Counted from the first letter of the stretch, positions 13,330 through 50,096 are shown. The stretch is 64,000 bases of DNA from Geosiphon pyriformis uo1 (GCA_016748015.1 JAAOMT010000599.1:458589-522588), one strand, 5' to 3'. Program-made: numbers and translations. Notes: generated from the sequence alone by a model not told the origin.

Positions 13330-13343
13330 CACAGAGAGCACCA
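13330..13343 (-). promoter_or_regulatory. Primer binding site of element B (TGGTGCTCTCTGTG)
   Basis: Starts TGG two nt after the LTR end and is complementary to a tRNA 3' end ...GAGAGCACCA. The tRNA identity (Met-elongator or Ile-like) is unverified. Confidence 0.8.
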
Positions 13344-13345
13344 AA

Positions 13346-22211: not shown

Positions 22212-22866
22212 TGTTACGGGTTGGAGTAACAAGCTAACAGATAGCAAGAGAGAACAGGATTGTAGGGTAATGGAAATAATCAAAGGGGAATTTAACTTCA
22301 ATGAGCGAATTGAATGAGTATGGATTCAATGTGTGAGATCAGTCTCATAAAATATCTCAGTCACTATTCTTTTTAAAAGATAACCGGAGAATCTGAAAGT
22401 AGAGGGATAGTCCGTACTGTCAACAATTGATCACCACTGGTATAATTCTATGCCTCACGTTGGCACTCTTAGAATTTAATATCAGATATCAACTTGTGCT
22501 TTTCAGTTACGTTTATTTAAATAGTCTTTAAATACTACAATTATTCAAACAGGAAAAGACCAACAAGTAATTTTTTATCCTAAGATGTTCAGATACTTGA
22601 AGGTAGAGAAAGGAAAATTAGCAATAAGAGAGTGATTGAGATGAAAGTTGTTATTTTTATTTATTTGATTCTTGTCTGAGATATGATTTTCTACAGCTAA
22701 GAGACTTATTGCTTATATAGCTATTGAAAGTGGTCAATGACCAGGTCAATGGTCAGATCATTGATCAGGTCAATGATCACTATCTAAAAATAGAGTGGCT
22801 AATTATATGACATCAGTGGCTACTACATGTGATAACTAATAAAAATTATAGGTTTTAACCATAACA
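22212..22866 (-). repeat. 3' LTR of element D
   Basis: Direct repeat of 29188-29890 with TG...CA ends; the PPT GGAAAGGATAA is adjacent on the minus strand. Confidence 0.95.
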
Positions 22867-23475
22867 TTATCCTTTCCAAAGAGATTGAGCTCTGGCAAAA
22901 TCAAGCTATTTATAGAGTATTCTAATTGAAAGGTTTTGTCTAACTCAAAACTAACTAGTTTGTTGAAGTCTTTTGTGGATAAAGTGTATAGTACTTGAGG
23001 CAAAATAAGCTTTGTATCCAAGAGACCAAACCTTTGTATAAGAGTTTTGGCTCTTCTGGCAATGGTCAAAACTCTTGGGACATCCAACCGTATAATGCCC
23101 AAAATTTCCACTTGTATCTCAGAAGTTGTTTTCTTCATGAGCTTCATGTCTTCTATGATTTCATCAAGGCAACCATAGAGCTCTAGTTGTCTTCCATATG
23201 ACAAGTTTTTGTCTATGGGCAAGATTTCTTTAATTGTTTTTCCAATTGTGGTGGAAGGTACAAGTATTGCTGCTGTTATGCTTTCTAACAGATACTTATC
23301 CATTTTGCTACCAATTTTTTCTCTTTGGTCTGATAACAGTATGAGTTCCACTGTTGTCTGTTATTATGGTCTGTTTTCCAATGATCAGAGTAGTATTTGG
23401 ATAATTTTTGATCCAGTACTCATGGAGAGTGTAGAAAGCATTTTGAATGTTTTGATCTAGGAAATAATTGTTCAT
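22867..23475 (-). pseudogene. Element D 3' accessory ORF (ORF3)
   Basis: MNNYFLDQNIQ...IIGKQTI (ORF 23308-23571) is frameshifted into ORF 22836-23351 (...TIARRAKTLIQRFG...). DFARAQ lies at the PPT in an adjacent frame. Confidence 0.7.
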
Positions 23476-23516
23476 GTCAATTAAAGATACCTCTGTTTTG
23501 GAAATAGTGCATTTAT

Positions 23517-24836
23517 TTATATCTGATTTTTGTTGATAATTTGGGTCAGTATTACCACAACAAATAACCAATCAGGTCATTTGTGATATTTCTTGAATCA
23601 TGTGCCATAAATAGAGCGATCATTGAAGATTGTTCTATATTGATCTTGTAAGATATAAAAATCATTGTTCAAAACTTTGTTGACTATAAAAAGTCTTTTC
23701 CACTGGCTAGAAAATTTATCACCATAGACATTGTCTCTGTCTGAACGGTATTCTAAAACTAAGTCACCAACACTTAAGGAAAGTGTTTTATATGTTTTCT
23801 TTTTCTTAAGCTTCTCTTGGAATTGTTTTATCTTTTTAAAGGCAATTATTTGTGCTTCTACTAATGAGTCAAGAATGGTACCAAGTCTTCTTTGCAAAAT
23901 GTCTTTGTAATTCTCTATTGTTATTTCTTCAAAAAGTATTGTCTCAATGTCAGTTTCTATTGGTAGGGTTGTCATTTGTCTATAGAGTAGATAAAAGGGT
24001 TCATAACTTGTTATGTCATGATTCACAGTTCTATAAGTAAACAAAGCTGAAGGCAGTACTTTGTCTCATAAGTTTGTTTCTTCACTGGTTTTGGCTAGGG
24101 TTTCACATAGTGTTCTATTAAAACGTTCCACTAGGCCATTTGTTTGGGGATGATAAGAAGAGGAAAGTTTGTGACATATTCCCATTTTTCTGCAAAGTTC
24201 TTTAACAAGTATACTGAGAAAAGCTCTTCCTTTGTCAGATAAAAGTTCTTTGAGACAGCCATGGCGACAAATGATATCTTCATAAATGAAATTGGCTATT
24301 GAGACTGCTGTTTGGTCTGGAGTGGCTCTTGCTTCTACCCACTTTGTAAGATAGTTGGTAGCTGTGATAATGTATCTGTTGCCATCAGGAGTTATTGTTA
24401 AAGGTCCAACAACATCTATACCAATTCTGTTAAAGGGTTGACCAACAAAGATTGGATGGATATCTTCTTTGTGATTGGATTTTCCTCTTCTTTGGCAGAT
24501 ATTACAGGTTTTAATGTATTCAGCAATGTCTTTTCCCAAGGTAGGCCAATAATAGTGAGCTAGAGTTTTCTAAATTGTTTTTGTTTTTCCAAAGTGTCCA
24601 GCTAATGGATCAGTGTGCATGTTATAGATTACAATTTCTCTTTCTTCAAATCTAATAACTCTCTGGGAATGGTCAGGATCTTTTCTATTTCTTTTATAAA
24701 GTTGGTTCTGGCAAATCAAATAAAAATTTGATTGTTTGCACAATTGTTCTCTTTGTTGGCATGTGTATTTCAGTGGGTATTGTCCTTTATCCAAAAATTC
24801 TATTAAGACAGAGTAGTTGTCCAAGTCCATTATCAT
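23517..24836 (-). pseudogene. int: Element D integrase (separate ORF)
   Basis: Start MIMDLDNY; HTDPLAGH...CNIC, GIDVVGP, LSDKG and QTNGLVERFN motifs. Confidence 0.9.
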
Positions 24837-24899
24837 GTGTGTTTGTGGGAGAGTTACTAATAATTAGGTTGGTTTAGTTTTGAGAAGGTTGTACTGTCA

Positions 24900-27800
24900 C
24901 TAGATGGTAAGTCTAGAGAGAGCATTGGTGTTTTAATGATTAGCTCCTTTGTGATGTTGAATATCATAGTCAAATTCATCCAAGTGGAGTATCCATTGAG
25001 TTATCCATTTGTGTTCCAGCTTCTTTTTGTTGTGCAGCCAAACCAGAGCTTGGTGATCTGTTACCACCAAAAACTTTATGCCAAGAAGATACTTACTCCA
25101 GTAGCTAGTGGATCATACTACTACTAAGCATTCTTGCTCAGTAACTGAGTAATTTTGTTCTGCTGGGGAGAGGGTTCTACTGGCATATGCTATGGCATGT
25201 TCTTTGCCATCTTCATCTTTCTGTGATAGGACAGCACCAAGTCCAAAGCCAGATGCATCAGTGTAGAGGATAAAAGATCAATCTAGATCAGGTTGCTTGA
25301 GGATGGGTTCTGTAACCAGTTTTTCTTTTAAAGTTTCAAAGGCTTTTTGCTAATGTGTTCTCCAATGGTAATTGACATTTTTTCTGAGTAGCTGATTAAG
25401 AGGAGAGGCGATTTTGGAGAAATCCTTGACAAATTTGTGATAATAAGAGGCCAAACCAAGAAAAGAGTGTAGTTTATGAATGTTTATTGGTTGTTTGATG
25501 TTTTGGACTTTTTCAACTTTGGCTGGGTCAGGAAAGATTTCATTTTTTGTAATAAGATGACCAAAGAACTGGGTGGATTGTCTTCCAAAGAAAGATTTGA
25601 TTGGGTTAATCTTAAGGCCAGCATTTCTGAAGAAGTCAAAAACCTTTTGCAAATATTCCAGGTGTTTATCCCAGGTTTTTGAATATATCATTATGTTGTC
25701 CAAATAGACTAGAACAAAGTTTTCCTTAACTGATTCAAATACTTTATCCATTAAGCATTAAAAGGTGGGAGGGGCATTGGTGAAACCAAAAGGCATAACT
25801 GTGAATTCATAGGTACCATACTTGGTGATAAAGGCAGTTTTCTTTCTGGTTTCTGAATTCATCTCTACTTGTCAGAATCCAGCAGTTAAGTCAATGATTG
25901 AGAAAAAAGCAGCATCTTTGAATTGGTCTAACATTGCATTAATCTTGAGAAGTGGGTACATGTCTCTTTCAGTGATGGCATTTAATTGGCAGTAGTCAAC
26001 ACAGAAGTGTAATGTTCCACTTTTCTTGGATACCACTACAACTGGGAAAGCCCATTCACTCTTGGTTTCTTGTATGAACCCAAGTTCTTTCATCTGGTTT
26101 ATCTCTTTCTTGATAAACTCATCATTGTGCCAATTGGATTGATAAGGCTTCAAATAGATGGGTCAAGTTTCTCTGGTGGTGATAGTGTGTTGTATCACAT
26201 GGATACATCCAGAGATATCATCTTCTTTAGAGATAACTGGGCTATTTCTAGCCAGCAATTTTTCAATGTCTATTTTTCTTTCTTTTGGGGAGGGTTTTCT
26301 TTGTTCTACAGCCAATAATTGGATCTTAGGTGGTTCATTCTCAAAGGACTTCTGTACTTCTTTTAATTCTTCTCTGGGTATCAAACTAATTGGTTCTCAA
26401 TCTTTATAATATATTAGGCATGATTTGCATTTGTTGCTTGGAGAATACAAGGGTTTGTTGCATCAGCACCAGGCATAAGGACCATACCACCAAAAACTGT
26501 ATTTGGCTTTCTTGCCAGGTTTTTTTTCAAAGGCTCTTCTAAGGATATCATAATAAGGCCAGCAGATCAGCTTGTCATTTATAATGATTCTTTCTTTGTT
26601 TGCTTTAATATTGTTCAGTGGTTTGCCATTGCTGGTAAAGGTGGTATAGGCGAGTTCAGCTGTTTCTTCTTGCTCTTTTTGTTCTTCTTTTTCATCGCTC
26701 TCTTCATCATTTGATTCATCTGATTGTTCTTCTTCTTGGTTTTGTTTGGGTACTGGGGGAGTTGTCCAGTAGCGACACTTAACCACAATGGGTTTCTCAC
26801 CACATCTGATGGTTAATTCACAAAGTTCATAATCAAGCAAAGCTTTTGTTTTTTTGAGTCATTCATTGCCAACAATGATGATGTATTCCTTGGCTTCAGA
26901 AACTTCCATGTCAGTTTCAATGCTGATTCCATTGATGTGGACAGAAACAGCTTTGGCAATACCCAGTTTTTTCTTTTTGTCACCATGTACATTGGTCATT
27001 GGTCTGGTGGAAGGTTCATCAATCTTTCTACCAATTGCTTCCAAGAAATGTTTGGCAATAACACTAACAGATGATCCACTGTCCAGAATTAAGTCAATGA
27101 AGTATCCAGCCACTTGGGCTTTACAAATCAGAGGGGTGACATTGCTGTTGTTAGCAAGTCCAGCTTGGCGAGGGCACTTGTTGGTTTTTGGTGTCTTTTT
27201 CTTTGGAATCAAGAATTTGCGAAGATCCTTTCTGAACTGTAAGTGGGTCATTAACTGGCCAAAGATAATATGTGCTGGGGTTTCTATAAGATCTTTGACA
27301 ATGGAATAGGATCCAGATTTTTGTACAATTTTTGGGGGTTCTAACTTTGGAGGATTCTTAAAAACTTTAGCCTTTGGTGGCTCATTGTTATCAGTGGCAG
27401 AAATTGAGGCTTTGTTAGGGTCTAGAACAAAATCAACCTTGGCTTTTTTCTTCTTTCTGGTTGGTTCTGAGGTGTTGATTGCTAGTTCATCCATGTCATG
27501 GTTATCATCAGTTAAGTTAAAAGTGAAAAAGGGGTTTTCTTCTGGTTGGCTTGTACTTTTACTCTTTGGAGGTGTGCCTACCAGTTTAAAGGCTGATAAA
27601 CAATGGCTTCAACTAGGGGATCCTTTCCAAAGAAATTGATGTTGGCATGATTGGTTCTTTGATTAGAGACATTGTTGTTGTTGTTGGGTCTGTTGTTTTG
27701 GTTGTCATTGTTTCTGGGAACTGGAGGAGGCAGTGGAGAATTGTTACAATCTCTTGAATAGTGTCCAGTTAATCCATAATGATAGCACACAGGTGGGCCA

Positions 27801-29135
27801 CAATTTTGCTGTCTTTGATAGGGAGGTTGCTGGGGCTGGTTAAAACAAGGTTCATATCTAAGTCTTGGTGGTTGTTGGTTATCTCTAACTGCTTGTGCCA
27901 AAGGTTCTAATAACCAGGCAAGATTGGCTGTGAGTTTATCAATTAATTGTTTATTTGGAGCTTGAGTTTGGGCAGCAAAAGAAGCAGCAGCCAATTGAGG
28001 GACAAGAGCCATGACAGAAGCAAGAGCAAAAACTGGAAGTGTAGATCTCAAATGTATTCTTTGGTTGTCTTCAATTCATTGGGCAAGTTTAATGGCCATG
28101 TCTATTGTAGAGTTGTCTTTCAGGGCCAAGAGAGGCCAAAGAGCATAAGATAAATCGGTTTTCAATCCTTTTGTGAAGGAATGAATCTTTTGTTCTTCTG
28201 TCCAGTTTCTTCCAGAGTCTACACATTTGATTAGCTTTCTAATAGCTTTAGCATATTCAGTCACTACTTCTCCAGGGCCTTGGGTTTTTCTTTCCAATTC
28301 CATGCACCATTTGGATATTAATATTAGAGTTCTGAACTTGGCCTCAAACTGGATAGTGAAAGAGGTATTTTCTTCTCCAGTATTGGTTGGTGTCCATCTG
28401 ATTATTTTGTGTTGAGCATTGGCATCTGTTTCTTGTAAGAACCAGGTAGCAGGAGAGCCTTGGAGATAGCCACCAATGATTTGGAACTTGTATTCTTCAT
28501 CATACTGGTCGGCTGTGGCAGCTCTCTCAAAATCATCCAACCATTCAATTGGATCTTGTGTATCACCTCTAAATAATGGTAGTAGGGTATTGTTTCTTCT
28601 TCCTAAAGCAGTTTGTATACCTTGGAGGGTGGCCAGAATGTTTGCTTGCATGGGGTTATTAGCCATTGGTTCAAGAGTAACTGTTTGTGTAGATGAGTCT
28701 AATTTACTTGATAAAAGATCAAAAACAGAGGCAGTTTGGTAGCTTTCTTCTTCTGTTTCAAAGGGAGTTTCAGTTTCTTAATGGGCAGCAATCCAAATGT
28801 GGGATTTGATGATTCAGATATTCGAAATCAGGGGGCTTTTGTTCAAAGATTGCAGAATATAAGAGCTGATTAATACTGTTGTTTCTTTCTTTAAAGTTGT
28901 CTTCAAAATAAGCTTGGTCAAAGTAATAGGTTGTATAAGCTGTGTAGGTTTCAGCTGAATGCTTGTTTAGGAACCAGTTCCAAAAGTCTTGGAATTGTCT
29001 GCTGGATTGTTTTTCAATAAGAAAGCAAATCAAGCAAAAGAGCAAAGGATTAAGTTCAATAAAGTCTAGATCGTTTTTGTTGTGTGCTTTAAAGTGTTTT
29101 TTTGATTGTTGTGGCAGGTATGAATAATCACCCAT
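24900..29135 (-). pseudogene. gag-pol: Element D gag-protease-RT-RNase H
   Basis: Capsid ORF 28076-28666, CYHYGLTGHYSRDC, LILDSGSSVS, IDLTAGF, YLDN, YTDASG and NALSR followed by TAG TGA. Confidence 0.92.
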
Positions 29136-29164
29136 ATAATAGAAAGCAAAGTGGATTTTGACAA

Positions 29165-29181
29165 CCTCACAGGGAGCACCA
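29165..29181 (-). promoter_or_regulatory. Primer binding site of element D (TGGTGCTCCCTGTGAGG)
   Basis: Lies 6 nt (TAAAAG) downstream of the 5' LTR; the same arrangement is seen decayed in E at ~32347-32370. Confidence 0.8.
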
Positions 29182-29187
29182 CTTTTA

Positions 29188-29890
29188 TGTTATGGGTTGG
29201 AGTAACAAGCTAACAGATAACAAGGGAGAACAGGATTGTAAGGTAATGGAAATAATCAAAGGGGAATTCAACTTCAATGAGCAAATTAAATGAGTATGGA
29301 TTTAATGTGTAAGATCAGTCTCATAAAATATCTCAGTCACTATTCTTTTCAAAAGATAACCAGGGAATCTGAAGGTAGAGAAATAGTCCGTACTGTCAAT
29401 AATTGATCACCACTGGTATAATTCTATGCCTCACATCGGCACTCTTAGAATTCAATATCAGGTATTAACTTGTGCTTTTGAGTCACATTTATTTAAATAG
29501 TCTTCAAATACTACAATTATTCAAACAGGAAAAAGCCAACAAGTAATCTTTTATCCTAAGATGTTTGGATACTTGAAGGTAGGGAAAGGAAAATTAGTAA
29601 TAAGAGAGTGATTGAGATGAAAGTTGTTATTTTTATTTATTTGATTCTTGTCTGAGATATGATTTTCTATAGCTAAGAGACTCATTACTTATATAGCTAT
29701 TGAAAGTGGTCAATAACCAGGTCAACAACTAGGTCAATGATTAGGTCAATGATCAGGTCAATGATCAGGTCAACGGTTAGGTTATTGATCAGGTCAATAA
29801 TCACTATCTAAAAATAGAGTGGCTAATTATATGACATCAGTGGCTACTATATGTAATAACTAATAAAAATTATGGATTTCAACCATAACA
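29188..29890 (-). repeat. 5' LTR of element D
   Basis: Direct repeat of 22212-22866 but 48 bp longer (12-bp CAGGTCAATGAT units). Confidence 0.95.
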
Positions 29891-30259
29891 ATATTGAAAA
29901 TAAAAAAAATTAAGCAGTAATTACACAATTTTGTATTAAAACTGGTTAGTTTTTGCTTCTGTTTTTTGTAAGTAAAAACAAGTTTTTAGTAATATTTTTA
30001 GAAAATTTTAAAGTTATTAGTAAAAAAAATTTTTTTATTGTTATTATTACAGAAACATTTTTAATAGTATGTATTTTCTTAATAATCATATTTTTTTATT
30101 TTTATTATAGGAATATGTATTTATTTGTTAATTGTTTAATTATAAACAACAACAAACAGAGTTTTTTGTATGTTTAATTGTTAATATATATAATATATTA
30201 ACAAAATTTATCACATATTTTTTTTTTAAAAAATATTATTTTATAGTTTTTTATCTAAT

Positions 30260-31621
30260 AAAATTTTTTTGTATCAAAAAACATATTAGCTTATAGAAAC
30301 ATTAGAAAAAAATTATAAAATAATAGTTAATAATATTAATAATAATAGAAAAGAAGACTAATAATTGTTTATTAAATCAACTAGTTAAATTTAAAATTAA
30401 AAACCAAATGTTGTTATATTATACTAAAGCTAAAAAACAGTATAATAGAAAATTTAACTTAAAGTAAAATAGACTATTTTATATACACAAAGTTCTAAAT
30501 ATAAAGCTTACAAATTATAATTAAAAAACAGAAGTTTAAAGAAAGCTGTACATAAAAATTGTTTAAAAATTTATTACACAACACAAAAATTGTCATTATT
30601 TGTATTTTAACTAGAAACACAAATTTCATTAATTAGACCAAAAAATATATTATGAAATCCAAAACCAATTATTATTATCAAATACAATTTATATATAACA
30701 ATTTAAATTACATAAAATAAATATATAAATACTAAAAAAAACAAAAAAAAGAAATTAATAACACTTTTAATAGAGATTTTTTAAACAAAATCTTAAAACT
30801 TTTAAATAATTATTTAAAACAATTCAATAATTTATAACATTAGTAAAATCACAATTAATAGAAAAAATATAATACAAAAATATAAACAAAAAAAAAGTAA
30901 ACAAAAATTCAATTAGAACTGAGCATTTTTATTCCTATAAACAATTAAAAAAAAAATACATGACTTTATATACTTAAAAAAATAAAAAAAGTCTTAAATA
31001 AGTTAACTATAAAATTAAACACAGAAAAGTAGATACCAAAAACTTTTAAAACTTGAAAAAAAAATTTTACTAGTTTATTGGTTTTTTAAACTTGACAAAA
31101 AACTAGATTTATAGACATCATACTTAGCTATTAACAAACAAATATTCAATAAAGAAGCTTTTAAACAAATAGAAGAATTTGTTGGAAGAAACAACTTAAT
31201 ACTATATTACAAGACAATATACTAACTGTATTCAGTATTTAAATACTGTTTAATCATATTATTAGACAATTTACTAAATACTATTACAATTAACAATATA
31301 GAATAAATAAAAATTTATAGTTTAAAAACTTATAAAAAACAATACTTAACATAATAATTGAATATTATATCAAAAAAACAATTTTTACAAATATATACAA
31401 TTTTGCAAAAACTCAATTCTAAAAAAAAATGTTACTTGAATAAAAAAACCAATTTAAAGCTATTAAAAAAAACGTAATTAATATATAATAATATGGAAAA
31501 AATATAATAATATAAAATAACACAAAAATAATATATAATAACTTAAAATAATATAAGATAATACACAATAATATAAAATAGCATAGAATAATTAATTATA
31601 ATATAAAATAATTAGTTATAA
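30260..31621 (+). mobile_element. AT-decayed K-family fragment K2 (integrase tail, ORF3, start of 3' LTR at 31430), interrupted by E
   Basis: Inverted homolog of ~17600-18960; KQIEEFVGRNNLILYYKTIY*LY in ORF3; TGTTAC at 31430 after a decayed PPT. Confidence 0.72.
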
Positions 31622-34600
31622 TATTATGGTTAAAATCCATAGTTTTTATTAGTTATTACATATATTAGTCATTAATATTATATAATTAACCATCCTATTT
31701 TTAGATAATAATTAATAACTTGATAATTGATTTGATTATTGATTTAATTATTAACCTAATTAATGACTTAATTATTAACTTGATTAATGATCTAGTCATT
31801 GATTATTTTTTAATAGCTATATAAATAATAAATTACTTAACTATAGAAGAACATAATCAAAGTAACAAAATAAAATCCACTATTAATTACTTTTTTTATA
31901 TTGCTTATTCTCTTTTCCCTATTTTTAAGTATTTAAATATTTTAAGATAAAAGATCACTTGTTAATATTCACATATTTTATCTTTTTTTTTTCTTGATTT
32001 ATATTGTTAAAATTAACTTAAAAAATAAGTGTTTGCTTTTGTAATTTCTTAAATAAAGAAACAATTAAAAAGCATAATAATATCTGTTATTAATTTTAAA
32101 AATTGCCAAGTTGAAACATAGAATAATAGCAGTAGTATTATTTTGTTGACAATTACAGACTATTTTTTTACTTTTAGATTTCTAGAAAAGATTTGCAACT
32201 GTAATTTTTATAAGGCTAATTACATATATTAAATCCTTATTTATTTAATTTGCTTCCTTATTGTAATTCTTTTTTTGATTAATTTTATTATCTTACAATT
32301 CTGTTCTCTTTTGCTATTTGTTAACTTGTTATTCCAACTCATAACATAAAAGTAGTGCTCCTTGTAAAGTTGTTAAAATTTACTTATTTCTTTATTGTAT
32401 GGGTGATTATTCATATCTGCCACAATAATCAAAAAAACACTTTGTAGCACACAACAAAAACAACCTAAATTTTATTAAACTTAATTTTTTGTTTTTTTGT
32501 TTAATCTGTTTTCTTGTTAAAAAACAATGTAGTAGACAATTCTAAAATTTTTGAAACTGGTTCTTAAATAAACATTCAGCTAAAACCTATACAGTTTATA
32601 TAATCTATTTTTTTAATTAAGCTTATTTTAAAAAAACTCTTAAAGAAAAAAAAAACAACATTAATTAGTTCTTATATTTAATAATCTTTAAACAACAGCT
32701 TTCTGATTTCGAATATCTGAATTACCAAATTTACATTTGGATTGCTGCTCATTAGTTAATTAAAACATCTTTTAAAACAGAAAAAAAAAGCTACCAAACT
32801 ATTTTTGTTTTTGATTTCTTTTTAAATGAATTAAATCATTTTATATAAACAGCTTCTTTAAACCAATAACTGTTAACTTTATGCAAACAAACATTCTAAC
32901 CACTCTCTAAGATATACAAACTGCTTTAGAGCAAAAAAACAACACTTTACTATTATTATTTAGAAATAATATTTAAGACCTAATCAAATGGTTAAATGAC
33001 TTTAAAAAAGCAGTTACAGCCAACTAATATAATGTTAATTACAAGTTTTAAATCATTGGTGGTTATCTACAAAACTCTCTTGCTATTTGGCTTTTAAAAA
33101 AACCTGATACTAGTGCTTACCAAAAAATTATTAAATAGATACTAACAAATACTGAAAAAAAACATTCTTTTTATTATTCAATTTGAAAATAAATTCAGAA
33201 CTTCAATCTTAATATTTAAATAACACATAAAATTGGAAAAAAGAATCTAAGATTCAAGAAAAATAGTAACTAAATATGCTAAAACAATAAAAAAATTAAT
33301 TAAATAGGTAGATTTTAAAAAAAATTAGACAAAAAAACAAAAAATTTATTTTTTTACAAAAGAATTAAAAACCAACTTATCTTATGTTTTTTGGTCTCTT
33401 TTGGCTCTGAAAAATAATTCTATAATAAATATAATTATTAAATTTGTACAAAAAATAAAAAACAATCAAAGAATGCATTTAAAATTAACACTTTTAGTTT
33501 TTGCTTTTGCTTTTATTCTGGTTTCTGCTTCTTAAATAGCTGCTATCTCTTTTGTTATTCAAATCCAAGACTTCAATAAACAATTAATAGATAAACTTAC
33601 AGTTAATTTTGTTCAGTTATTAAAGTTTTTAGCACAAACAGTCAGAAATAACCAATAAGTACAAAAATTCAGATTTAAATTACATTTTAATCAGTTCTAA
33701 CAACCACTATATTAAAAACAGCAAAATTATGGCTCATCTGTGTATTATTATTGTGGACTAACTAAATATTTTTCAAGAAATTGCAACAATTTTCTATTGC
33801 TTTCTCCAGTTTCTAAAAACAATAATAATTAAAACAATAGATCCAACAACAATAATGTCTTTAATTAAAGACTTAATCATGCCAACATCAATTTCTTTAA
33901 AAAAAATTTCTTAGTTGAAGCCATTGTTAATTAGTTTTTAAACTGGTAAGCATATTTCTAAAGAGTAAAAATACAAGTCAATCAGAAAAAAACTTTTTTT
34001 ATGTTTATAATCTAATTAATAATGACTATAACATAAATGAATTAGCCATCAATTCCTTTAAATTTACAAGAAAAAAAAAGCCAAGATTAATTTTATTTCA
34101 AATTCTAATAAAGTCTTAACTTTTACTGCTAATAACAATAAATCATCAAAAGCCAAAGTTTTTAAAAATTCTTTAAAGTTAAAACTCCCAAAAATTGTAC
34201 AAAAATTTGAATCCTATTCTGTTGTTAAAGGTTTTATCAAAACCCCAGTTTATATTATCTTTGGCCAGTCAATAACTTATTTACAATTCAAAAAAAATCT
34301 TCACAAATTATTAATCCTAAAAAAAAAGATACCAAAAACCAACAAATACTCTTATTAAACTGAACTTGCTAACAATAATAATGTTATTTTTCTAATTTGT
34401 AAAACCCAAATGGCTGGTTATTTTATTAATTTGATTTTAAACAGTAAATTATCTGTTAGCATTATTGTTAAACAATTTTTTAAAGCAATTGGCAAAAAGA
34501 TTGATAAATCATTTACTTAATTAATAATTAATGTACATAGTAATAAAAAAAAAAGTCTAGGCATAGCCAAAACTGTTTCTGTTCACATTAATAATATTAG

Positions 34601-34700
34601 TATTAAAACTAACATGAAAATATCTAAAGCCAAGAAATACACCATAATTGTTAGCAATAAATAACTTAAAAAAGCCAAAGTTTTACTTGACTATGAACTA
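31622..34700 (+). mobile_element. Element E: decayed D-family 5' LTR (31622-32346), PBS, gag and protease
   Basis: Colinear with the reverse complement of D (29890 to ~26820), with most G/C converted to A/T. Confidence 0.88.
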
Positions 34701-36688
34701 TATAAGTTAAAACTTGATAACAAAGTACTAACAAAAATTGCACATGGAGATTAATTGAAACATTATCATTCCAGAAACAAATTAGTATATATTCCTCTTT
34801 AATTAATTCTGAAGATATTCCTCGAAATTTAGAACCAATAGTTATAATAAAACAATAACCAAACTTGAACACTTAATTTAACATTTTTACAATAATTTTT
34901 TTAATAATACACAAAAATAGAAAAATGGTAAATAATTACAAAAAACATTTAAATCCAAAAACAAATAAAAAACCCTATATCCAAAAATAATTTTCTTTAT
35001 TCTTTTTATTAATTAGTCATTTTTATCATGATTATTCCCCGAAATATTCAACAAATATCTCAAAAATTAATGTTAGCTTTAAAAATACTTTCTGACTTAT
35101 TCATAATAATTAATAAAAGTTAAATTAATTACATTCAGAAAGAAACCACAGTCCCAGTAGTAAATAATTCTCAGAATCATTACTCCTATAAAAGAAACAA
35201 AAGAAGTTACACTGGAAATTAATTACCAGAACTTTTAAAACAAGCTTTAAAAGAAAATCTCTTATTTGCTCTTATTAACATTTTACCAAATGCCACAATC
35301 CAACAAAAACTTCTACTATTTCTTAATGAACAAAACAATGAACATACCCTTATTTATAAATATTTTCAGATTGGAAAAACACTTTATGAACGAAAACTGG
35401 AACTTAAAGCAACAAACTTTACTCTTGAAGCTATACAAAAACAAATTTACAATAAATTTAAGACAGCAACTAAACCAACAAACACTTGCTACAAACTTAG
35501 AGCAGCTTTTAGACTCTATGATTTGTTTAATACTTGTGAAAATGCCCTACAAAATTCAATACTGCAACCAATAAAAATTCAATACATTGGTAAATTTACA
35601 GAACTGAAATTTTAACAATTTTCAAACCAGATTACTTCAATTATTTTGGACCACTACCTTAATATTACAGATAATGCTTAGACTTTAACGGAGCTCAGTT
35701 TTGAGAAAGAAATTATGTTACCAGTAGAATTTTAGCTATTAATTAGCATGAAATTACTCTCATAATTCTTATTATTAATTAGCATATATAATTATTATTT
35801 CAATTATTACTTATTATTTAATCAAATTAGCAATTATTATTATTCAACCAATAATCTGATTTGTATCATAGAAATTAAGATGATCAAATTACACAATATC
35901 CTGACCCATGTAACATAGTCAAAATTCGCCGAAATTAATAAAAATTGGCCGAAATAATCAATAGTTCAGTAAAATAACTTGTAGTTTGCCGAAATATATC
36001 TTTAGTTTACCCAAAATTGTAGCAAAAAGAAAAGTACAAGTTCAAAGACTAATACTACAACAAGTTGTATAAAAGAAGAGCTTCTCTTTTTAAAAAAAAG
36101 GTATTTTCTCATATTTTATCATAGTATCTTACTTTAGATATCGTAATTAGAACAAATTATTTGTTACAAAATCCAATAAAAATTAAAATATTCAAAAACC
36201 AAATTCTTAAATTATTATACTTGAAATTCCCTCAACACAACTAACGTTTTGAAATTGATTAGCTACCAATTTCAGTAATCTGTTAGTGACTCCAGACCTG
36301 AATAGAAAATGTTTTCCTTAACAAAATTCTATTTTTTTTATATTTCTTTTATTTATTTTTTATTTTCTTATCATAATCATTTAGGTAGTCTACAGATGAG
36401 ATTTCTGTAGAAGAGTTGATTTTCACAGCAAAAATAACTACACATTTTTAGTGAGCTTCCAGACAAACAATTCCTGGGAAAGAGTTGATATTTACTACAA
36501 CATAACTACACAAAGTAACTGGTACAGAATTGGTTATTTCATTTATAAGCCTAGCAGTTCAAATTATAGGAGATAATTTGAAGATAAATTCAGTTATTGG
36601 AGGTTCAATTACTTTTAGAAAACGTGAATTTACAATAAAACAGACATCAACAACATTTAAAAAAAGAGACCAAAAACCTTTAGTAATA
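34701..36688 (+). mobile_element. Element F: integrase C-terminus, ORF3 (~35028-35704), PPT and H-family 3' LTR (35716-36688)
   Basis: YKLKLDNKVLTKIAHGD...LEPIVII; ORF3 ...KLRAAFRLYDLF...; LTR homologous to 56509-57489 and 1-212. Confidence 0.85.
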
Positions 36689-39600
36689 CCAGAAACACCC
36701 AAATAACCTTTTATTTTGTGCCAGCTGATGTCCAAATTCTTTTTATGAATAATACCTACAATGTTATAATGTTTGATCCAACATCTGTTTTAGAAGTCTG
36801 GATATATCAAATCTAATTCCGATTTGCAAGCATCCAAAGCAGTTTGACTGTTTAAAAAAAGTTGAATTGAACTAAAAGAAGAGACACATTTGAGCACCAG
36901 CAAAATAGCCTGCAACTCTGTCATAGTAGAAAACACCAATCTAGAAACCCTAACACCTAAACCAAAATTTATATCCTTAAAAAAAAACAGCCATACCAGC
37001 CCTTATGTTGACTGTTCTCAGACTACACAGAAATCCATTTGTATAAACAGAAAGACAATTGGCATTAACACCCAATAAACAATTATAGACGACCCTAAGT
37101 TCATAAAAACCAAGAATATTTAACAAACCAATGTTCTCTAAGAAAGGAAAACAAACAAGAAGAGAAATCACACCATTAAAAAAATGAATTAAAAGTTTAA
37201 ACCAATTGGGAACCAGGCCACAAGAGTCTAATCTCTTCCATTTTTTGAATGTTTTTCAATTAAAGATTGCACTAACATGATTATAAAGTTGGTCCACAAA
37301 AACAATTTTATACCACCAAAGCAAAAAAATACACTTAAAATACATCAATCCACCAAGAACAAGTGACATAAGAATATTATTCTGAAAACAAAAAGCATTG
37401 GTCATAAGACCACCCAAAGACAGATTATACTCTAGAAAAATACAAATTATACCAGCCAAAAAATTATTTAACAAATTGATATTAATATAAATCAAAAAAA
37501 GTAAAAAGTAGTGTAAATGCCAGCTGAGCACCTATAGGTTATGTAACTTATACACAAAAAAACAACCCAAAACCCTATTAAAATTAGCAAAATAGACAAT
37601 AGAAACCAACTTGTTTTCTGCTTAAATCTGTTTAAAAAATTTTAAATCATATAAAAAAGAGTGATATATTGTATTATTGGGAAAATTAAGTGACAGACCA
37701 AATTTGGATTTCAAGTTCTTGCAAATCAGAGTATCTTATTTATTACACACACCAATAAAAATAAAGCTGAATTGAGTTTTATAACTAATAATAAGATAAA
37801 AAACTGCTAACATTAGATATAAAAACTGTTTATTAGAGATTGCTTTTCTCAAAACAAGATTGGCAAAAAATTGAACATCTGAATACATCTTAGCCAAGCT
37901 AGACTTAAACAAACCCTTAGAAGATAAAAAAATGTTCAGATAGTAATAAAATTCTCTTTTTTTGGCAATAAAAATAGGCAAGTTACTGATAGACAAAGAT
38001 AAACTTGCAACTCTGCAGTTAATAAAAATGGCCACTGCCTTATTATTGTTTATAAAAATGTTATTAATTCTAAAAAATTCACTAACAATGCTGAGAATAT
38101 GCTGTGTGGCAGTTTGACTATTATCAACTCAGATCGTATTATTAACAAATATACTAGCAGCAAGAAAAAAGATCAGCCCAGCCTGAGATTCAGATCAGCC
38201 AGTTTTGACAACATAATAAGAATTCAATATATAATCATACACTCTTCTGTTTCTTAACTTTACACAAAAACAGATTATAAAATATGTACCAAAGAAGAGA
38301 TGAGAAAACTTCCTCTTAATTTAACCCATCATAAACCTGATAACTACCAGTTAAACCAAAATCAGTTATAACTCTGTTAATTTGATTATTGTGAATACTA
38401 CCAAAAAATTTAATGAATCTGCCACACATTTTGACCTTAATCAAACTTTTCTTGAGATGTTTCTATCCAACAGAATCATAACTCTTGTGTATGTCTTCTA
38501 AAACCAGCCACAATTTATAGTTCTTTTCCAAGACATCTTCTACTATTAAGCCAATAGCAAAAATAGGAAATTGTGTTGTTGTACTTTTAGAACAAAAAAA
38601 TTATCCTTATGAAGAACATCAAAAGTGCTGCAAGTCAAAGAGATCCTGTCTGAAAAAATTTTAGAAAGAACTTTACAAGTTGTTTTAATTAAGACAATAG
38701 GTCAAGTATTTGTAAAAACACTTTCCTTACTTATATGATTTGGGAATTATTAAGACTCAAGCCTCCTTTCAAGAACCAGACACTGACTTACAAGTCAAAT
38801 AAGAATTCAAAAGCACTAAAAGCATATCTAACACAGATTTGTCACAATGTTTTCACAATTCATTTGAGATATTAGAAAGACTGGCAGTTTTTCCATTGAA
38901 CAAAGCCAAGATTACATCAAGCATTTCATCAAAACTAATCAGACACATTACATTTAAGAAGGCATCATTAAAAACATAATCCAAAGATTAATACTGGTGA
39001 GACCAATTATCAGAGAGATCAGAAACCACAACATACTTCCAAGTCCAGTCTTCTATAATTATATCTACTTTTGCTTTGACCTGATTGGACTCCAAAATCA
39101 GTTTATCTTCAATAACCAGATGGTTTAATACCACTCTGCAAAAAGAATGTTTTAATATATTTCTAATAGTGTGACTTTTGTTTAGTTCAAAATCCTCCAT
39201 TTTTTTGTCAATTGCTGATCTAATTCAAGACTTTTTAGCACATCTTAATTCTATCATCTTAGAAGAGCAATAAAACTTCTTAATCTTAGCCAGAGCAGAC
39301 CTAATAACATTAAAATGAGATTCCAAAAAGAAAAGAAACTTCACTACAAAGGCATTAACAGAATCAAAACCACCTTATATATCCAACAATGATACAAACT
39401 CATCATGAGACACTTGACAAGAGGCTTTAACAATCTTAAATACCAAAAGTTCTAGCTTGTAAAATTTGGATAATTTCTTAATATATACACTATCATATTC
39501 TTTGAACTATTTCTTCTTAAAAATCTTTTCAGCTGACAAACATACTGCTTTGTGAACAGCATCTTACATTATGTTCAAATCTGAAAACTTACTAGATACA

Positions 39601-42340
39601 CAAAATTTATCAGAAAACATAGCTGCATTTGCAGCTATAGCATCCTTAAACTTGGCCCACTTGGCATTATTAGCATCTTTAAAATTGAATTTCCAATGGT
39701 TTTTGTTTGCTTGTTTGTGAAGAGAGTGCAACTGTGTATCCAATAATTCACTTAAACTCATTGACACAAAAACAGCTCTATAATCAGTATTAAAATATTC
39801 ACCAATAAACAAGATATTGTAACATACCACCACATTGACCAAGTTTAAAAAAACAAACACATAATCAATTGTTTTTTTGGCACTTCTCAAGTTTTTTTAT
39901 GTGTGATTTTTCTTAACTAGACTTCCCAACAGAGAATTGGCCAAACCCAAGTCATAATATTTCTTAAAACTAACATACTTGCATGAACCATTTTTATTGA
40001 AATTATCACTTAGAATAACAAAAAAAAATTTATTAACAGCCTTAGCTATCAAAAAATTAATATCATTAGCTTAAAAAAAACAAGTAACTATTAAGGCTCT
40101 AGCATAAAGTCTTAGAATTAAAACAGAAAGTTTATTTTTAAAAAGAAGCTTGACAAAAAAAAACTGACCAGATATCTCCAAAATCTTGTATACATGTCTA
40201 AACAGAGAATTATCTATAACAATTACGACATCAGAACCTAAATAACCAGAGTCTAATCCAGAAGTGAAAACTCAAACACCATTAATTTATTAGTAATCCA
40301 CAGATGAATCTTTTCTTTTAACTTTGTTTCTGTAAAAATTAAAACCAAATTGTTTATATTCTTGTGCCATTGAACAACATCTGCTTGCTTAGCAGGGTTG
40401 TTTATGCCTCTTATATTACATGTAGCCACCTTCTAGACAAAATCAATTATTGGGGAGAATGGACAACAGGCATCAAACCAGCATTGTCTACTTTGGCCAT
40501 CAGACTTATAATAGTAACTGAGAAATTTTTCAAAGTCACTTTCAACTTCAAAATTACAGATTGATCAAAAACTACTACTTCCATAATAGTTTCAATACCA
40601 GTAGTTATATCTGAACCCTCACTTATTACTATATTTATCTCTTGATTCTGTAATGAAGAGATCACTAATGGTTAACATTCAGGGCTAAGCTGGAAAACCA
40701 TTGGTCCAAATGTGTCCAACCTTTTAGCCAACATGTTCTGCAAGGTTGATGAGACTGTGCTCAAGAGTGGCAAACCTATTATTCAGTTTTATAGATACCA
40801 GTGGAGTAGACTCTATTTCTAAAAAGGAGCCAAAACTAGACAAATCATTACTAGCAAAAAGAGGAGAAAAAGATAATCTATCAACAATTTTTGCCCAAGA
40901 AGCACTACTAAAAGAAACAGAGTAAGCAACTGGTGCCAAATGCTTGGCATAGATGGCTGCCAGTCTGCTTTTATTTTTTTCAGATAACACCCTATGAGAA
41001 AAAGCATCAAGAAAATTTTTCTCACCTAAAGGACAGCCCAATGATATATGTCTTATCTTTTCATACTTATCACATTTGAAGAAACCCAACTGAAACCAGT
41101 GCAGATTGGCACCTCTTAAAACCAAAGTAATTCCCATAATAGTGGCAAGTAAATTGGCAGAGTTAAAACATACCACAGCACATCTGAATTGAACATATAT
41201 AACCAGATAATAATTAATAATACAAGTTTTACTACCAACTAATCCAATAAAGTTTCAGATATCATGTGCATTTGTTCTCATTAGCAATATATACAACAAT
41301 ACTTTATGATTATTTCTTATATCCCATAATTTCTTGTTCATGTTAGTCCTAGCAATATAAACTGCATCTTTCCCAATTAAGATAAACTATTTTGTTACAG
41401 CCAAATTGGCTTGATCTATCTGTTTAAATTCTACAATAGCTTTCTGCCAAAGACTTACCAATTGTATCTTAATCGACTTAATAACACCAAACTTAAATAG
41501 CACAGTACACACAGTCTTAGCTAATGTTTCAACTGGAATTTTTTTACTATTACAGTCTAATTAACAGATTTCTTGAAATTAGTATTCATTATGATCTTCA
41601 CATCTTCAGCCTTTTTAGAAGCCTGTGCCATACTTAATTCAGAAGTAAATGTTGTCTTAATAATCTCAGCAAATTTTGAGGAAGTAAAAGCCTTCCCAAA
41701 ACCATTGATTTTTGAAAACAACTTTCTAACTGCCACCAGCTTTTCATGAGAGAATTTCCCAACTATCTTATCCAAACCAATATCTAAAGTGAATGATTTT
41801 TTAATTGAAACATTAACCAATATCTTCAAAGAAGGAGAGAAGTCCAGAGGAGTGTTCAACAAAATATCATTATTATTATCATCACTCAAAAAGTTAATTT
41901 TGTTCAAAAATTTTCTCAATACCTTTTTGGTTTTAACATGTGAGTCTTTTGGAGTTTAGTCTGCATTTTTACTACCAAAAGTGGCTTCATTATTATAATC
42001 AAAACTGGTCTTCTTAATTAAACACTCTTCTTCTATGTCAATGCTATTAAATTCTGTAATATCACCAGTTTCCAAACTTCAAGAACAGTCACCTATTACT
42101 TTAGCAAAAATTTTCTTAGTTTTAATATTATTCTTCAAAATTTCATTTTTTCTTTTCTTTCTTAAAAGCATAGGCTTAAAACCACTAACCAAACCAGAAT
42201 TTTTGACAGCTTCTTTTATGACAGCAATACTAGAGTCAACAGTAGTCTTGTAATTAAGCAAAAACGGTTTGGATTTATTATACTAAATAATTAAAAAACT
42301 TTTGACTCTTTTTTGGAAATTTTGAATGAAAAAAAGAAAG
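36689..42340 (-). mobile_element. LINE-like non-LTR retrotransposon J2: ORF1 (~40447-42260) and ORF2 APE endonuclease-RT-RNase H, 3' end cut by F
   Basis: ATCN(I)RGINN...TETK endonuclease start at ~40430; PIVLIKT..KVLSKI and decayed FVDD (FVNNT ~38140) in RT; YT(N)G...ELQAI...(N)SQ...WHKIKG RNase H at ~36690-37050. Confidence 0.88.
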
Positions 42341-45300
42341 AAGTTTCAAAAAAAAATTTTATTTTATTATTAAAATTTTTAATATTAAAATTTATTTATT
42401 TTTGGTTTTTAAGTAAAATTATTTTTATTAAAATCATGTATAATATTCTTTACAAACTTTTTTAGTTATATTATTATTAGAAAAAAAACCTTATTTTTTT
42501 TCTATATCTCAAATTTTTGAAAAAATGCTTTATTTTAAAAAAAGTTTTTTTCTGTTTTTGCTTATTTTTACTATTTAATTAGATATCTTAAAACTTTTTT
42601 TGTTTAAATACAAGACTGTTAATATTAGCAGAAATTTAAATATAAAAGAATTCAAAAAAAAATCTAGCATTAGTTTTATGGTTTCAAATTTGTTTGTCAA
42701 AAAAAATACAAAGATAGTGTTTTGAAAAAACTTATTATTAGAGCCAATACTGAAGTTTTTTAAAAGTTAATTAAGACTGGTTGAATGACTGGTTTAAATG
42801 TTGACAATACTATTAATACTAAAAGTGTAAATATAAATAAAAAGTTTCTAGTTAAAAAGACTAGCTTTCAACTTGATAGTAATAATAAGTCAAAGTTTAA
42901 AGATATTAACATAACTTCTAAAAAACTGAATAAAATTATTATTAAGCATATACTTAAAAAGTTTTTTAAACAGATTAATTTTGATGTTAGCAATAATAAT
43001 AAAAACAATGTTTTGAATAACTTTTTTTTTTTTAAGTCTTTGGTAAATATTCTGGTTTGTAAATTTTTGCTTTGAATATTAATCTCTTTGCTGTGTTTAA
43101 AAAATTAGCTCAAAATAAACTAAAAATTATTAAAAAAATTTTTTGATATTAATGATTTTGAAAGAGTCTTTATTTTTTTAAAATTTAGTGTAATAATCTG
43201 AATATTATTTACTTTTAAAAAAACAATATTGGTTATGACAAATTTGGCTAATAATCAAATTATTATAATAAATTCTAATTTTAAAAGACCAATAAACAAT
43301 TATATAAATTAGACAATAATCATAAAAAAAATTTCTGTGAAAATATTTGTGGAGGTTGTATGAATTGTGCTTATTAATTTTGGTACTATTAAGTTAATTA
43401 AAATATAATTAGTAGAGCTATAACAAAAAACAATTATAGAATTAAAAAATTAGAATTAAACTAATTTTTTGGTATTTAAATAGTCTATTTTTATTAAGAA
43501 AAATACAATTTGTGTGATCAGAATTAATATTAATAAACAATTATAAAAAAGTTAGAAATATGTTTAGAGTTTTGCTTTATATCTCTCTTATAAAAACAAA
43601 TATTTATAATCTTTGAACTTTTATTGGTTTAATTAAAAAAAAACTTGTATAATTAATTGTAACTTTATTAATTACAATTATATTAAGTACACAACTATGT
43701 ATTTTGATTCAGAAAAAAGCTTGGTTAAAACAATTACTATAATCTTTGTTATAAAAAATATTGTATTTTGTTGGTCTTATTTGTTTTTGATTTTTTATTC
43801 AGTTTATAATAAGCTTAATTATATCTTTTTTAGATGAAGTTTAATTAATAATAGACTAATATTTAAGAAAAAAAGCTTTTTATTTGGCTCTAAACCAGTT
43901 TAAGTTAACTTGTATTTATACAAAAAATCTGTTTTTATTATCTATTCAGTAATTTTTAGAGGTAAATCTTAAATGTCTGTTGTTAATAAATTTTTTATTA
44001 AATATTTTCTGGTATTTTTTTTTGGTTTGGTTTTTTAAATAAAATTAAATCTTTTTCAATAATTATGAATGATTTGAAACTGTATTTTAACAAAATTAAA
44101 AGTAGTTTTACTAGCTTTATAAAAAATTAGATATATTTGTGTTAGTAATTTTTTAGTTTAGCTCTAAATATTAATTGTTAATAATCTTTTTATCATAAGA
44201 TCAAATAAATAATATAGTAATAAAAAAAGGTTTAAATGTGTTTACTAGTAACAAAACTGCTATTAAGCTAAATATTTTAGTATTTTCTGATATAATTAAA
44301 TTAAAAATTCAATTAAAAGATTTAATTAGCTTGGTTATAAATTTGTTGACAAGATTTAATAGTCTGAATTTAGCTTAAAGTGTGCTTTTTTCTTTAATAT
44401 CTTAATAATCAGTCTTATTTAAAAGATTACTATATACAATATAAAAAAAATAAACAATTTTGCTAAGCAAAATAATATTATTAAGTAACATAAAGAATTA
44501 AAAATTGATATTTTAATTGTTACTAAAATTAAACTTAATTCTAATATCAAGTCATAGGTTGCAAATAAGTTTGCAAATATAAAAATATTTACTTTTGGTT
44601 TAAATTCAAGTTATTTAGATGCTAATATGACTTTAATTGTAAATAAATACTTAATTAAATATATTTTAAAAATTTTAGAAGTTTTTAATAGACTTTTAAT
44701 AAGTTGTTTATTATTTAAAAACAAATAATCAGTTTTTGTTTTAAGTTTATATGCAGATATATTTTTAGAAAGATATTTGAATTAAGCAAATATTATCAAT
44801 TTTTTTATTGTTAATATATTTAATAAGAATAATTTTGTTATTTTGAAAAGTAATTTCAATAAAAAAGTGTTAAGTATAGTATTAATTTTAAGAAATATGT
44901 GAATATAGATTTAATTAATTCTTTAGTTGATAGTTTATTTGTTAAACTTTTTATGTAAAAAAACTTAAAAAAAGTTAGAAAGACAATTAATTATATTTTT
45001 ACATTGTTAAATTTGGTTAATGTTTTTACTAACAAAAAAGTTTTGAATGTAGATAATTTTTTTAATATTAATTATCTTATAGTTTTTGTTTTGATTGGAT
45101 TAAATAGTATTTTAGATATATATTAAAGTATTTTTTACAAGCAAACTAACAGAAACTAATAAAAATACAACTTTAAAAAAATTAATATAACCTAATAAAT
45201 TCTGTTTAAGAATACTATATTGGCAAATATTATTGTGTTTAATAAAAACTTTGATTATATAAAAAAAATTTCTGATTTAAATATTATGTAGAATATTATT

Positions 45301-46153
45301 AAGAAAATTGTTAGTTTTTTGGCCAATAAAATTTTTTCCAAATTTTGAAACCAAAATTTTGATAGCATTTTTACTAAAGTTTTATTTTGCTTTTACAAGT
45401 TGGAAATTTTAATATCTAAGATTATTTAGACTTTATATTTGGACTTTAATTATAAGTTAGATAACTTAATTGCTTATTGATTATTATTTAACAGCTTATG
45501 TACATATTATGTTTAAGATTTTTTGGTATTAGATGCTAATTTTAATACAGTTAGATCTAAGTTAACTAAAGTTTAAAAGATATATTATGTATTCAAGTTA
45601 ACTAAGTTTTAATAAACTAAAATTGTAAAAATTTATGCTATTATTAATAAAAAAAATAAAGAGTTTTAAGATTAATAAAAGCAATATTATCAAAAATGTT
45701 TTAAAGTAGATTATTTAGTAAATAATAAAAATTTGGTATTAGAGTCTAAAAAAATTAAATCTTAAGTAAATTTAATTATAAAAAAATAAATAAGAAAACA
45801 TAAAATATTAAAAAATGTTTTGAATATTTTGTATTAGCAATACTTATTTTTGGCTTATGTAGTTAATAATGTTTTTTTTGTAATTATAAATAAAATTGGT
45901 CTTAATAAAATATTGAATATTGTATTAAAATTAGTAAATAAAAAAGCTTCTGGTTTTTTGAAATATCTAATAAATTTTAGAAATCTTGTAATTTTTTAAT
46001 TCTGAATTTTTTATTAAATTTTCTTAACAGTTGCTTGACAAGTAAATAAGTTTTTTAGTCTTGAAAAAAAATTTGGGTGTTAATAATTCTTAAATTATAT
46101 GAATAAAAAAAGATTTTAATTAATTTAAGACTTATTGTATTAATTAAAACTGT

Positions 46154-47011: not shown

Positions 47012-47117
47012 TTATCCCCTCCTTTTACGATTGAGCTCTATTGAAATCAAAGTTAATTTCTTCATTAAATTCTAAGTTACTATAGTGGTTCAATACTATG
47101 TTATTAATTTGTTGTTG

Positions 47118-47705: not shown

Positions 47706-47734
47706 TGTTGTTGTGGTGGGTGGGTTGGTGATTT

Positions 47735-49950: not shown

Positions 49951-50096
49951 TATCGGATGTTGGTCACCTGTTCTAGGTCGGTATAGGCTACAAATTTTTC
50001 TGACTCGGGATCGTCAGATAAGTCTTGTTGATTTATTGATTGATTTTGAGACTGCTGATTCTCAATTTCCATTTTTCTTTCTAAGTTCCTTTTATC

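Follow-up and report, generated by a model that had tools for sequence, protein, structure and literature searches.

Several fungal systems are known that convert the cytosines of repeated DNA to thymine. Repeat-induced point mutation (RIP), known from Neurospora crassa and other Pezizomycotina, introduces numerous changes in each round, in tracts that lie on one strand. In the ascomycete Zymoseptoria tritici, Dim2 is a proven mitotic C>T mutator of repeats (PMC8016269), and a TpCpG hypermutation affects transposable elements (TEs) of Pucciniomycotina (PMC3318451). In a kingdom-wide screen, 7 of 7 Glomeromycetes were scored "no_rip" (PMC12543289; a search of 12 of its 19 supplementary files gave no entry for Geosiphon), and Gigaspora is cited as RIP-free (in PMC8647823). 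A literature search, with the species' genome paper outside it, found no report of RIP or hypermutation for Glomeromycotina or Geosiphon. Here we analyzed a 64,000-nucleotide stretch of the Geosiphon pyriformis uo1 genome, hereafter the window (GCA_016748015.1 JAAOMT010000599.1:458589-522588), and in particular element E (31622 to 34710, plus strand), an older, truncated Ty3/Gypsy retrotransposon copy within it. The C:G>T:A changes in Geosiphon retrotransposons are post-insertion, one-way, and tens of times more common per site than other substitutions; this extreme process in a glomeromycete is real.

The window is a nest of retrotransposons with no recognizable host gene. Its host is a glomeromycete, a possibility that a preceding sequence-only reading had raised. 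All 119 named relatives of the gag of element D are from Geosiphon pyriformis, and the same annotation is carried by all 120 relatives of the gag-protease open reading frame of element G among the matches listed and by 10 of 10 relatives of LINE K (a long interspersed nuclear element) that were looked up. Long terminal repeat (LTR) elements make up 41.2% of this genome (PMC11952901).

Element E retains a 5′ LTR, gag, and protease and has a guanine-plus-cytosine (GC) fraction of 0.21. It belongs to the family of D (22212 to 29890, minus strand; GC 0.36), in which Pfam identifies gag, protease, reverse transcriptase (RT), and integrase. E was compared by global alignment with the D minus strand from 26813 to 29890, and the score was 3171, compared to −114 to −201 for eight shuffles. 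The 3042 columns contain 637 transitions, 136 transversions (82% transitions), and 16 gap events, the transitions from D to E being 322 C>T, 231 G>A, 53 T>C, and 31 A>G. About half of D's C:G pairs are lost in E, and the loss is even across codon positions (0.52, 0.47, and 0.54 for positions 1, 2, and 3, with 18 stops in 620 codons) and across strands (C>T at 298 of 615 sites, 0.48; G>A at 223 of 437, 0.51), whereas the transversions are enriched at codon position 3 (41 of 64). This means that the cytosine loss in E followed insertion and that most transversions preceded it. The apparent A:T>G:C differences number 84, and by our estimate D's own losses would produce about 63 of them. The sequence-only reading had stated that the copies differ almost only by transitions, which holds for the LTR pairs (99%) but is too strong for D versus E, where the transversions, mostly at third codon positions, are likely older than the insertion. 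The two 12-mers that it quoted lie at 22807 and 29831 (minus strand, in both D LTRs) and at 31670 (in E).

The twin LTRs of single elements record post-insertion change only, and the difference between the twins dates the changes after insertion. The D pair (3′ LTR, 22212 to 22866; 5′ LTR, 29188 to 29890; minus strand) shows 45 transitions and a single transversion over 653 columns, and the pair of the Ty3/Gypsy element G (3′ LTR, 46154 to 47011; 5′ LTR, 53494 to 54370; minus strand) shows 33 transitions and no transversion in 855 columns. Pooled, this gives 78 transitions, 65 of them non-CpG, and 1 transversion in 1508 columns. The probability of at most 1 transversion in 79 substitutions is 5e-7 at a transition/transversion ratio of 4 and 1e-3 at a ratio of 8. 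Non-CpG loss amounts to 0.070 per C:G site per LTR, compared to 0.0003 transversions per site, a difference of at least 38-fold at the 95% bound. Loss of mismatch repair is an unlikely cause, given 3 gaps against 79 LTR substitutions and the one-way direction. The sequence-only reading's "few indels" is borne out by these 3 gaps but not by pairs of old copies, which have about 17 gap openings per 0.9 to 1.3 kb.

The proposed direction, C:G>T:A, was supported by contigs of the D family in run X1 and by protein copies. At the 26 sites where the D 3′ LTR has C/G and its twin T/A, the majority among 9971 family contigs is T/A only once; at the 19 sites where the 3′ LTR has T/A, the majority is C/G at 7, and 12 are unlisted. 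Transitions account for 2991 of 3407 variable places in run X1 over 22000 to 36000. An assembly artifact was ruled out by two run X1 contigs that match 29866 to 30255 and 30280 to 30640, within or at the edge of the old Gypsy layer to the right of D (29895 to 31621; GC 0.15), letter for letter; X1 may be the window's own source.

The same bias was found in family copies across the Geosiphon genome. Copies were scored at D or G codons that agree with the family majority, using 119 of 119 D-family and 77 of 120 G-family copies; as these are gene models, heavily decayed copies and stop-creating changes are undercounted. C:G>T:A changes occurred at 1311 of 11444 opportunities (0.115) in the D family and at 898 of 10010 (0.090) in the G family, compared to T>C at 27 of 15464 (0.0017) and 92 of 14247 (0.0065), respectively, and to no more than 0.002 for each transversion class. 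The load per copy is continuous, from about 0.02 to 0.26; every copy carries some, and none of the 196 Gypsy protein copies is untouched or burst-hit. In the LINE family (148 of 150 copies), E>K was found at 198 of 1085 sites compared to K>E at 1 of 2083, and H>Y at 56 of 382 compared to Y>H at 0 of 475; the 312 "up" and 381 transversion-type events are mostly conservative lineage polymorphisms (I>V, K>R, and L>I). The one-way bias is therefore common to LTR and non-LTR elements.

The old layers are nearly reduced to A and T, as had been noted, with a GC of 0.12 to 0.17 compared to 0.35 to 0.36 for the young elements D and G. Inner elements of the nests that were measured are richer in GC than their hosts, and the GC steps are sharp at all four element junctions measured, as change accumulates with residence time. 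The old Gypsy layer into which D is inserted (C with fragment C′, 15650 to 22211, minus strand; GC 0.12 to 0.15) has lost 0.56 to 0.68 of the C:G sites of the younger Gypsy element A (2186 of 4484 columns kept). The old LINE L, in which G sits (42400 to 46153 and 54371 to 56300, plus strand; GC 0.17 in the first piece), has lost 0.61 to 0.62 of those of LINE K over its three pieces (2536 of 4633 columns kept). The post-insertion rates imply an equilibrium GC of 0.02 to 0.08, so that even the oldest layers are still short of it.

Further analysis of sequence context confirmed that CpA, CpC, and CpT decay as well as CpG. From D to E, the loss per C:G site was 219 of 460 (0.48) for CpA, 128 of 253 (0.51) for CpC, 10 of 18 for CpG, and 192 of 385 (0.50) for CpT, so that the 3′ base is without effect in old copies (P = 0.80 for D to E, 0.83 for K to L, and 0.27 for A to C). 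Some trends were apparent, however. First, CpG is lost at the highest rate of all classes in the young LTR pairs (13 of 28, 0.46, compared to 65 of 465 non-CpG sites), followed by CpA (36 of 204, 0.18), CpC (14 of 86, 0.16), and CpT (15 of 175, 0.09; P = 0.03 among non-CpG classes), and CpA takes 36 of the 78 changes. The CpG excess points to 5-methylcytosine (5mC). CpG is depleted throughout, at an observed/expected ratio of 0.0 to 0.5. Second, the strongest effect lies on the 5′ side, which the sequence-only reading missed. From D to E, loss was 223 of 358 at TpC, 138 of 253 at CpC, 118 of 301 at ApC, and 70 of 204 at GpC (P = 2e-12); in hits per site, TpC (0.98) is about twice as fast as ApC (0.50) and GpC (0.42), and in protein copies the values are 0.17 to 0.18 for TpC compared to 0.06 to 0.10. 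The four-way test of the 5′ base was nonsignificant in the LTR pairs alone (P = 0.32) and from K to L (P = 0.09). Among non-CpG targets in the young LTRs, TpCpA is nevertheless the most common (24 of 91, compared to 41 of 374 other non-CpG sites; P = 3e-4), and TpCpG lost 4 of 6 sites there, or 4 of the 78 changes. Third, pyrimidines at positions −3, −2, −1, +2, and +3 raise the loss in all three old/young pairs. Finally, purine-flanked cytosines also decay, at 57 of 188 in E and, for ApCpA and GpCpA, at 9 of 83 in the LTR pairs. The order of rates is thus CpG, then TpC and pyrimidine-flanked C, with purine-flanked C decaying too. Homopolymer slippage was rejected as the cause of the TpC bias, since TpCpA outside runs loses 66 of 99 compared to 25 of 72 and 10 of 40, and plant-like CHG methylation (H being A, C, or T) was rejected because CHG loss (76 of 191) is below CHH loss (462 of 909).

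The changes show little sign of coordinated rounds. In the four LTRs, neither strand imbalance (P = 0.77) nor runs (P = 0.68 to 0.94) were found, and 10 or fewer strand-specific rounds are rejected for them (P ≤ 0.034). Strand heterogeneity per copy is absent from the Gypsy and LINE protein copies (P = 0.97, 0.59, and 0.90); the copy-level power simulation is overstrict, the observed statistic lying below the binomial expectation, and was used only for 20 or fewer rounds. The check for strand coordination proposed by the sequence-only reading gave no tracts beyond about 5 bp; an initial signal of long strand tracts was limited to 5 bp once a wider context was modeled. Decay is slow, one change at a time, and dependent on the time since insertion.

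Decay of methylated CpG alone is refuted as an explanation, both by the 65 of 78 non-CpG LTR transitions and by the bias in protein copies. The best reading, in which our confidence is about evenly balanced, is a steady deamination of densely methylated transposon DNA of the DIM-2 type. Silenced repeats would be densely cytosine methylated, outside CpG too, with a predicted DIM-2-type enzyme as the methyltransferase; methylcytosines would then deaminate, spontaneously or with the help of an enzyme, and would go unrepaired, so that C:G pairs would become T:A whatever the strand or context. The process would probably be restricted to repeats, and its timing would be mitotic and not premeiotic. 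All-context methylation with unrepaired deamination would account for the CpG lead, the loss in all contexts, the symmetry, and the tempo. Heavy non-CpG methylation with deamination was one branch of the sequence-only reading, and it is the branch that fits best.

Data from related fungi are consistent with such a mechanism. In Rhizophagus irregularis, 32.5 to 49.5% of cytosines are methylated as measured by LC-MS (liquid chromatography coupled to mass spectrometry), and the clade of arbuscular mycorrhizal fungi (AMF) is said to keep DNMT1, DNMT2, DNMT5, DIM-2, and RID, Geosiphon not being mentioned in the accessible part of that source (PMC8298701). CG sites make up 13.8% of cytosines in R. 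irregularis, and 30.8% of them are highly methylated (PMC8647823). By arithmetic on these two sources, CpG alone would give about 5 to 11%, and at most 14 to 28%, of cytosines methylated. The LC-MS value above this CpG supply hints at heavy non-CG methylation in AMF, or at a discrepancy between methods. In Phycomyces, which encodes DIM2, TEs carry CG and CHH methylation (PMC11258239).

Several points weigh against this reading. First, the R. irregularis arithmetic combines data from two studies with different strains and methods. Second, the one proven Dim2 mutator, that of Zymoseptoria, makes over 98% of its changes at CpA and leaves CpG alone, unlike the Geosiphon spectrum (PMC8016269); Neurospora DIM-2 prefers CpT (PMC13297926), which decays most slowly of all classes in the young LTR pairs; and a 5′ TpC preference is not described for DIM-2-type enzymes in the literature examined. 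Third, glomeromycete genomes are AT rich, with a GC of 26.8 to 27.7% in three rows of a supplement (PMC12543289), and such low GC is also expected from a genome-wide bias. Fourth, 12 of the 19 T/A sites of the D 3′ LTR are without direct polarization. Finally, consecutive changes from D to E and from K to L share a strand more often than expected (0.60 compared to 0.53; P < 0.001). Wider context models remove most of this sharing, leaving P = 0.03 to 0.09 for D to E and K to L and none for A to C, and the residual correlation is weak within 5 bp and gone beyond about 5 to 10 bp.

More tentatively, Glomeromycotina, and perhaps Mucoromycota more widely, may possess a repeat-targeted C-to-T defense of their own, distinct from RIP, with an enzyme that favors TpC and pyrimidine tracts, has no 3′ requirement, erodes transposons until about 12% GC is left, and escapes k-mer screens as well as RIP indices built on CpA.

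The main alternative, though a rather unlikely one, is a genome-wide bias. Here, cytosine deamination would go largely unrepaired everywhere, dead TEs would show it since nothing conserves them, and CpG methylation would add the CpG excess; the causes proposed are uracil excision that is weak or lost, or dormant nuclei that persist for long and suffer more chemical damage than replication error. Such a bias predicts the same TE spectrum and agrees with the nearly flat 3′ context, with the symmetric accumulation of changes one at a time, and with the low overall GC of glomeromycete genomes. It also agrees with the "no_rip" score of the 7 Glomeromycetes, in which k-mers were not enriched in repeats over noncoding DNA (PMC12543289), and dUTPase in three Gypsy families is a weak hint of uracil stress. 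However, the four-fold sites of young elements have a GC of 0.25 to 0.30, far above the equilibrium, which weighs lightly, and the divergence between the lineages of the Gypsy elements A and B is balanced (A:T>G:C at 308 of 2170). These two observations suggest that transposing lineages mostly escaped this spectrum, although reverse transcription errors could explain them too. In addition, the ratio of downward to upward changes to transversions is 199:87:105 in nine related Gypsy clusters from other sources and 20:8:9 in R. irregularis, compared to 135:8:15 and 98:2:2 in Geosiphon, a weak control because RT domains are under selection.

A closer comparison with Rhizophagus gave little. An R. 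irregularis query was used to keep 80 of 464 metagenome loci, and no usable Rhizophagus family was found among these best 80. A 12-locus Gypsy family from an unknown host (L020, L023, L027, L034, L039, L040, L045, L049, L057, L073, L074, and L077; L047, a near-duplicate of L045, was left out) does not show the Geosiphon pattern: its transition/transversion ratio is about 5 to 21, but the changes run both ways (C>T 0.091, T>C 0.042) and have no TpC bias. Two further collections, genome_contigs and viral_contigs, yielded no Geosiphon DNA.

True homology-dependent RIP, by RID and/or DIM-2 before meiosis, with a new target preference and acting weakly over very many sexual cycles, is improbable. 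In its favor, the repeats decay one way and by transitions alone, to a GC as low as 12%, RID and DIM-2 are reported as kept in the AMF clade (PMC8298701), and TpCpA leads the non-CpG targets in young LTRs. The old layers have a TpA/ApT of 1.06 to 1.21 and a (CpA+TpG)/(ApC+GpT) of 0.67 to 1.04. These ratios mostly satisfy the looser RIP-index cutoffs. However, old copies lose CpC and CpT as often as CpA, the substrate index of E is 1.13, same-strand tracts are absent beyond about 5 bp, and the 196 copies include none that escaped or was hit in a burst. The load on the linked LTRs does not exceed that of the interior (0.097 compared to 0.114 in D and 0.063 compared to 0.110 in G, the interior including some pre-insertion change), although linker DNA between direct repeats can itself be mutated by RIP that depends on DIM-2 (bioRxiv 2021.04.05.438447). 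A likeness to canonical RIP is unsupported as to context, with no CpA restriction, and as to strand coordination.

A TpC-preferring cytidine deaminase, AID/APOBEC-like in behavior and acting on both strands of chromosomal TE DNA, is very unlikely. It would explain the roughly doubled rate of TpC relative to ApC or GpC, the greater loss next to pyrimidines in the three old/young pairs, and the slight same-strand clustering within 5 bp. The preference is mild, however, with 57 of 188 purine-flanked cytosines lost, and editing of cDNA would be strand asymmetric, whereas C>T and G>A rates in E are equal and the twin LTRs differ. Least probable is damage by ultraviolet (UV) light, in which the 3′ C of a TC or CC dimer changes to T, as a pyrimidine-biased part on top of CpG decay: Geosiphon pyriformis lives at the soil surface, the 5′ pyrimidine matters whereas the 3′ base hardly does, and pyrimidine-rich flanks raise the rate, but a C between two purines cannot form dimers and yet is lost in both E and the LTR pairs, and only a single same-strand CC>TT type doublet occurs among the 78 LTR changes. 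A pyrimidine-biased part of the process could come from either source.

Taken with deamination of methylated transposon DNA as the best reading, the process in Geosiphon is likely a mutator that is linked to methylation and acts steadily, and we found no earlier description of one in this fungal group. Glomeromycete TEs have been scored as RIP-less, yet one-way C>T change is extreme in Geosiphon and occurs in a context to which such screens would be blind. Should the process be repeat targeted, a mutagenic genome defense would be added to an early-branching lineage, and it would be a possible cause of AT-rich genomes. TE ages in Geosiphon that are based on LTRs or Kimura distances are distorted by the process. 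If RID is responsible, there would be a bearing on cryptic sex in "ancient asexual" fungi.

The remaining features of the window are as follows. D and G (46154 to 54370, minus strand; GC 0.35) are Ty3/Gypsy elements by their twin LTRs, target duplications, and gag-protease-RT-RNase H-integrase order. The 4-bp duplications are ATAT/ATAT at 22208 to 22211 and 29891 to 29894 for D and CTGT/CTGC at 46150 to 46153 and 54371 to 54374 for G, where one base differs, by a transition. The host elements, C around D and L around G, resume on the far side of the insert. The D LTRs contain a tandem 12-bp repeat (29700 to 29800 and 22730 to 22790), and the twins differ by 48 bp in its copy number. The Gypsy elements A (215 to 8831, plus strand) and B (8832 to 13961, minus strand) served as younger comparators (GC 0.36). 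Old C retains integrase, RNase H, RT, and dUTPase remnants in order, the last at 21388 to 22071 (minus strand). dUTPase (PF00692) lies between protease and RT in A (3636 to 4418, plus strand), G (49317 to 49772, minus strand), and H (60689 to 61153, plus strand), and no dUTPase match was seen in D with Pfam. LINE K (36700 to 42383, minus strand; GC 0.30) was classed via its relatives, which have RRM, endonuclease, RT, or RNase H matches; Pfam gave no match on 12 decayed K pieces. The second and third pieces of L are separated by an old LTR (54716 to 55715; GC 0.14). Where E breaks off, a high-copy stretch (34711 to 36686) runs on into an H-family LTR and contains a 130-amino-acid open frame (35223 to 35612) without a Pfam match. 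At four-fold sites in the coding regions of A, D, G, and H, G-ending codons make up 3 to 7% and C-ending codons 21 to 27%, a skew that is a strand asymmetry from the elements' active phase. An RT search with 48200 to 49024 (minus strand) listed 120 matches at 48 to 62% identity, few of them named and none from Geosiphon; intact Geosiphon RT gene models of that length seem to be rare or masked.

Compared with the known systems, the Geosiphon process resembles the Dim2 mutator of Zymoseptoria tritici, in which more than 95% of changes in repeats are C>T (78 of 79 in the Geosiphon LTRs), TEs are eroded, and strand-coordinated bursts are absent (Moller et al. 2021, PMC8016269), the mitotic timing in Geosiphon being a deduction. 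The two differ in that CpG is fastest in Geosiphon, CpA, CpC, and CpT all decay, and a 5′ T matters, and also in that one host is an ascomycete and the other a glomeromycete. With RIP (PMC12543289) it shares one-way C:G>T:A change, the involvement of all TE classes, and AT-rich relic blocks with sharp borders, but it lacks CpA restriction and long same-strand tracts and may lack an extra load on linked LTRs. As in the hypermutation of Pucciniomycotina, also nonascomycetes, C>T change in TEs is more frequent after a 5′ T, but that system is confined to TpCpG (Horns et al. 2012, PMC3318451), whereas most Geosiphon LTR changes lie outside CpG. Passive methyl-CpG decay likewise makes CpG the fastest class and depletes it, but it covers only 13 of the 78 LTR changes and not the 307 of 553 losses in E that have a pyrimidine 3′ neighbor in both copies. 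APOBEC-type editing of cDNA would give sense-strand G>A and identical LTRs, unlike the equal strands and the twin LTRs changed on both strands in Geosiphon. The process thus behaves as a repeat-associated cytosine mutator would but, by their definitions, belongs neither to RIP nor to the Zymoseptoria CpA mutator nor to the TpCpG system.

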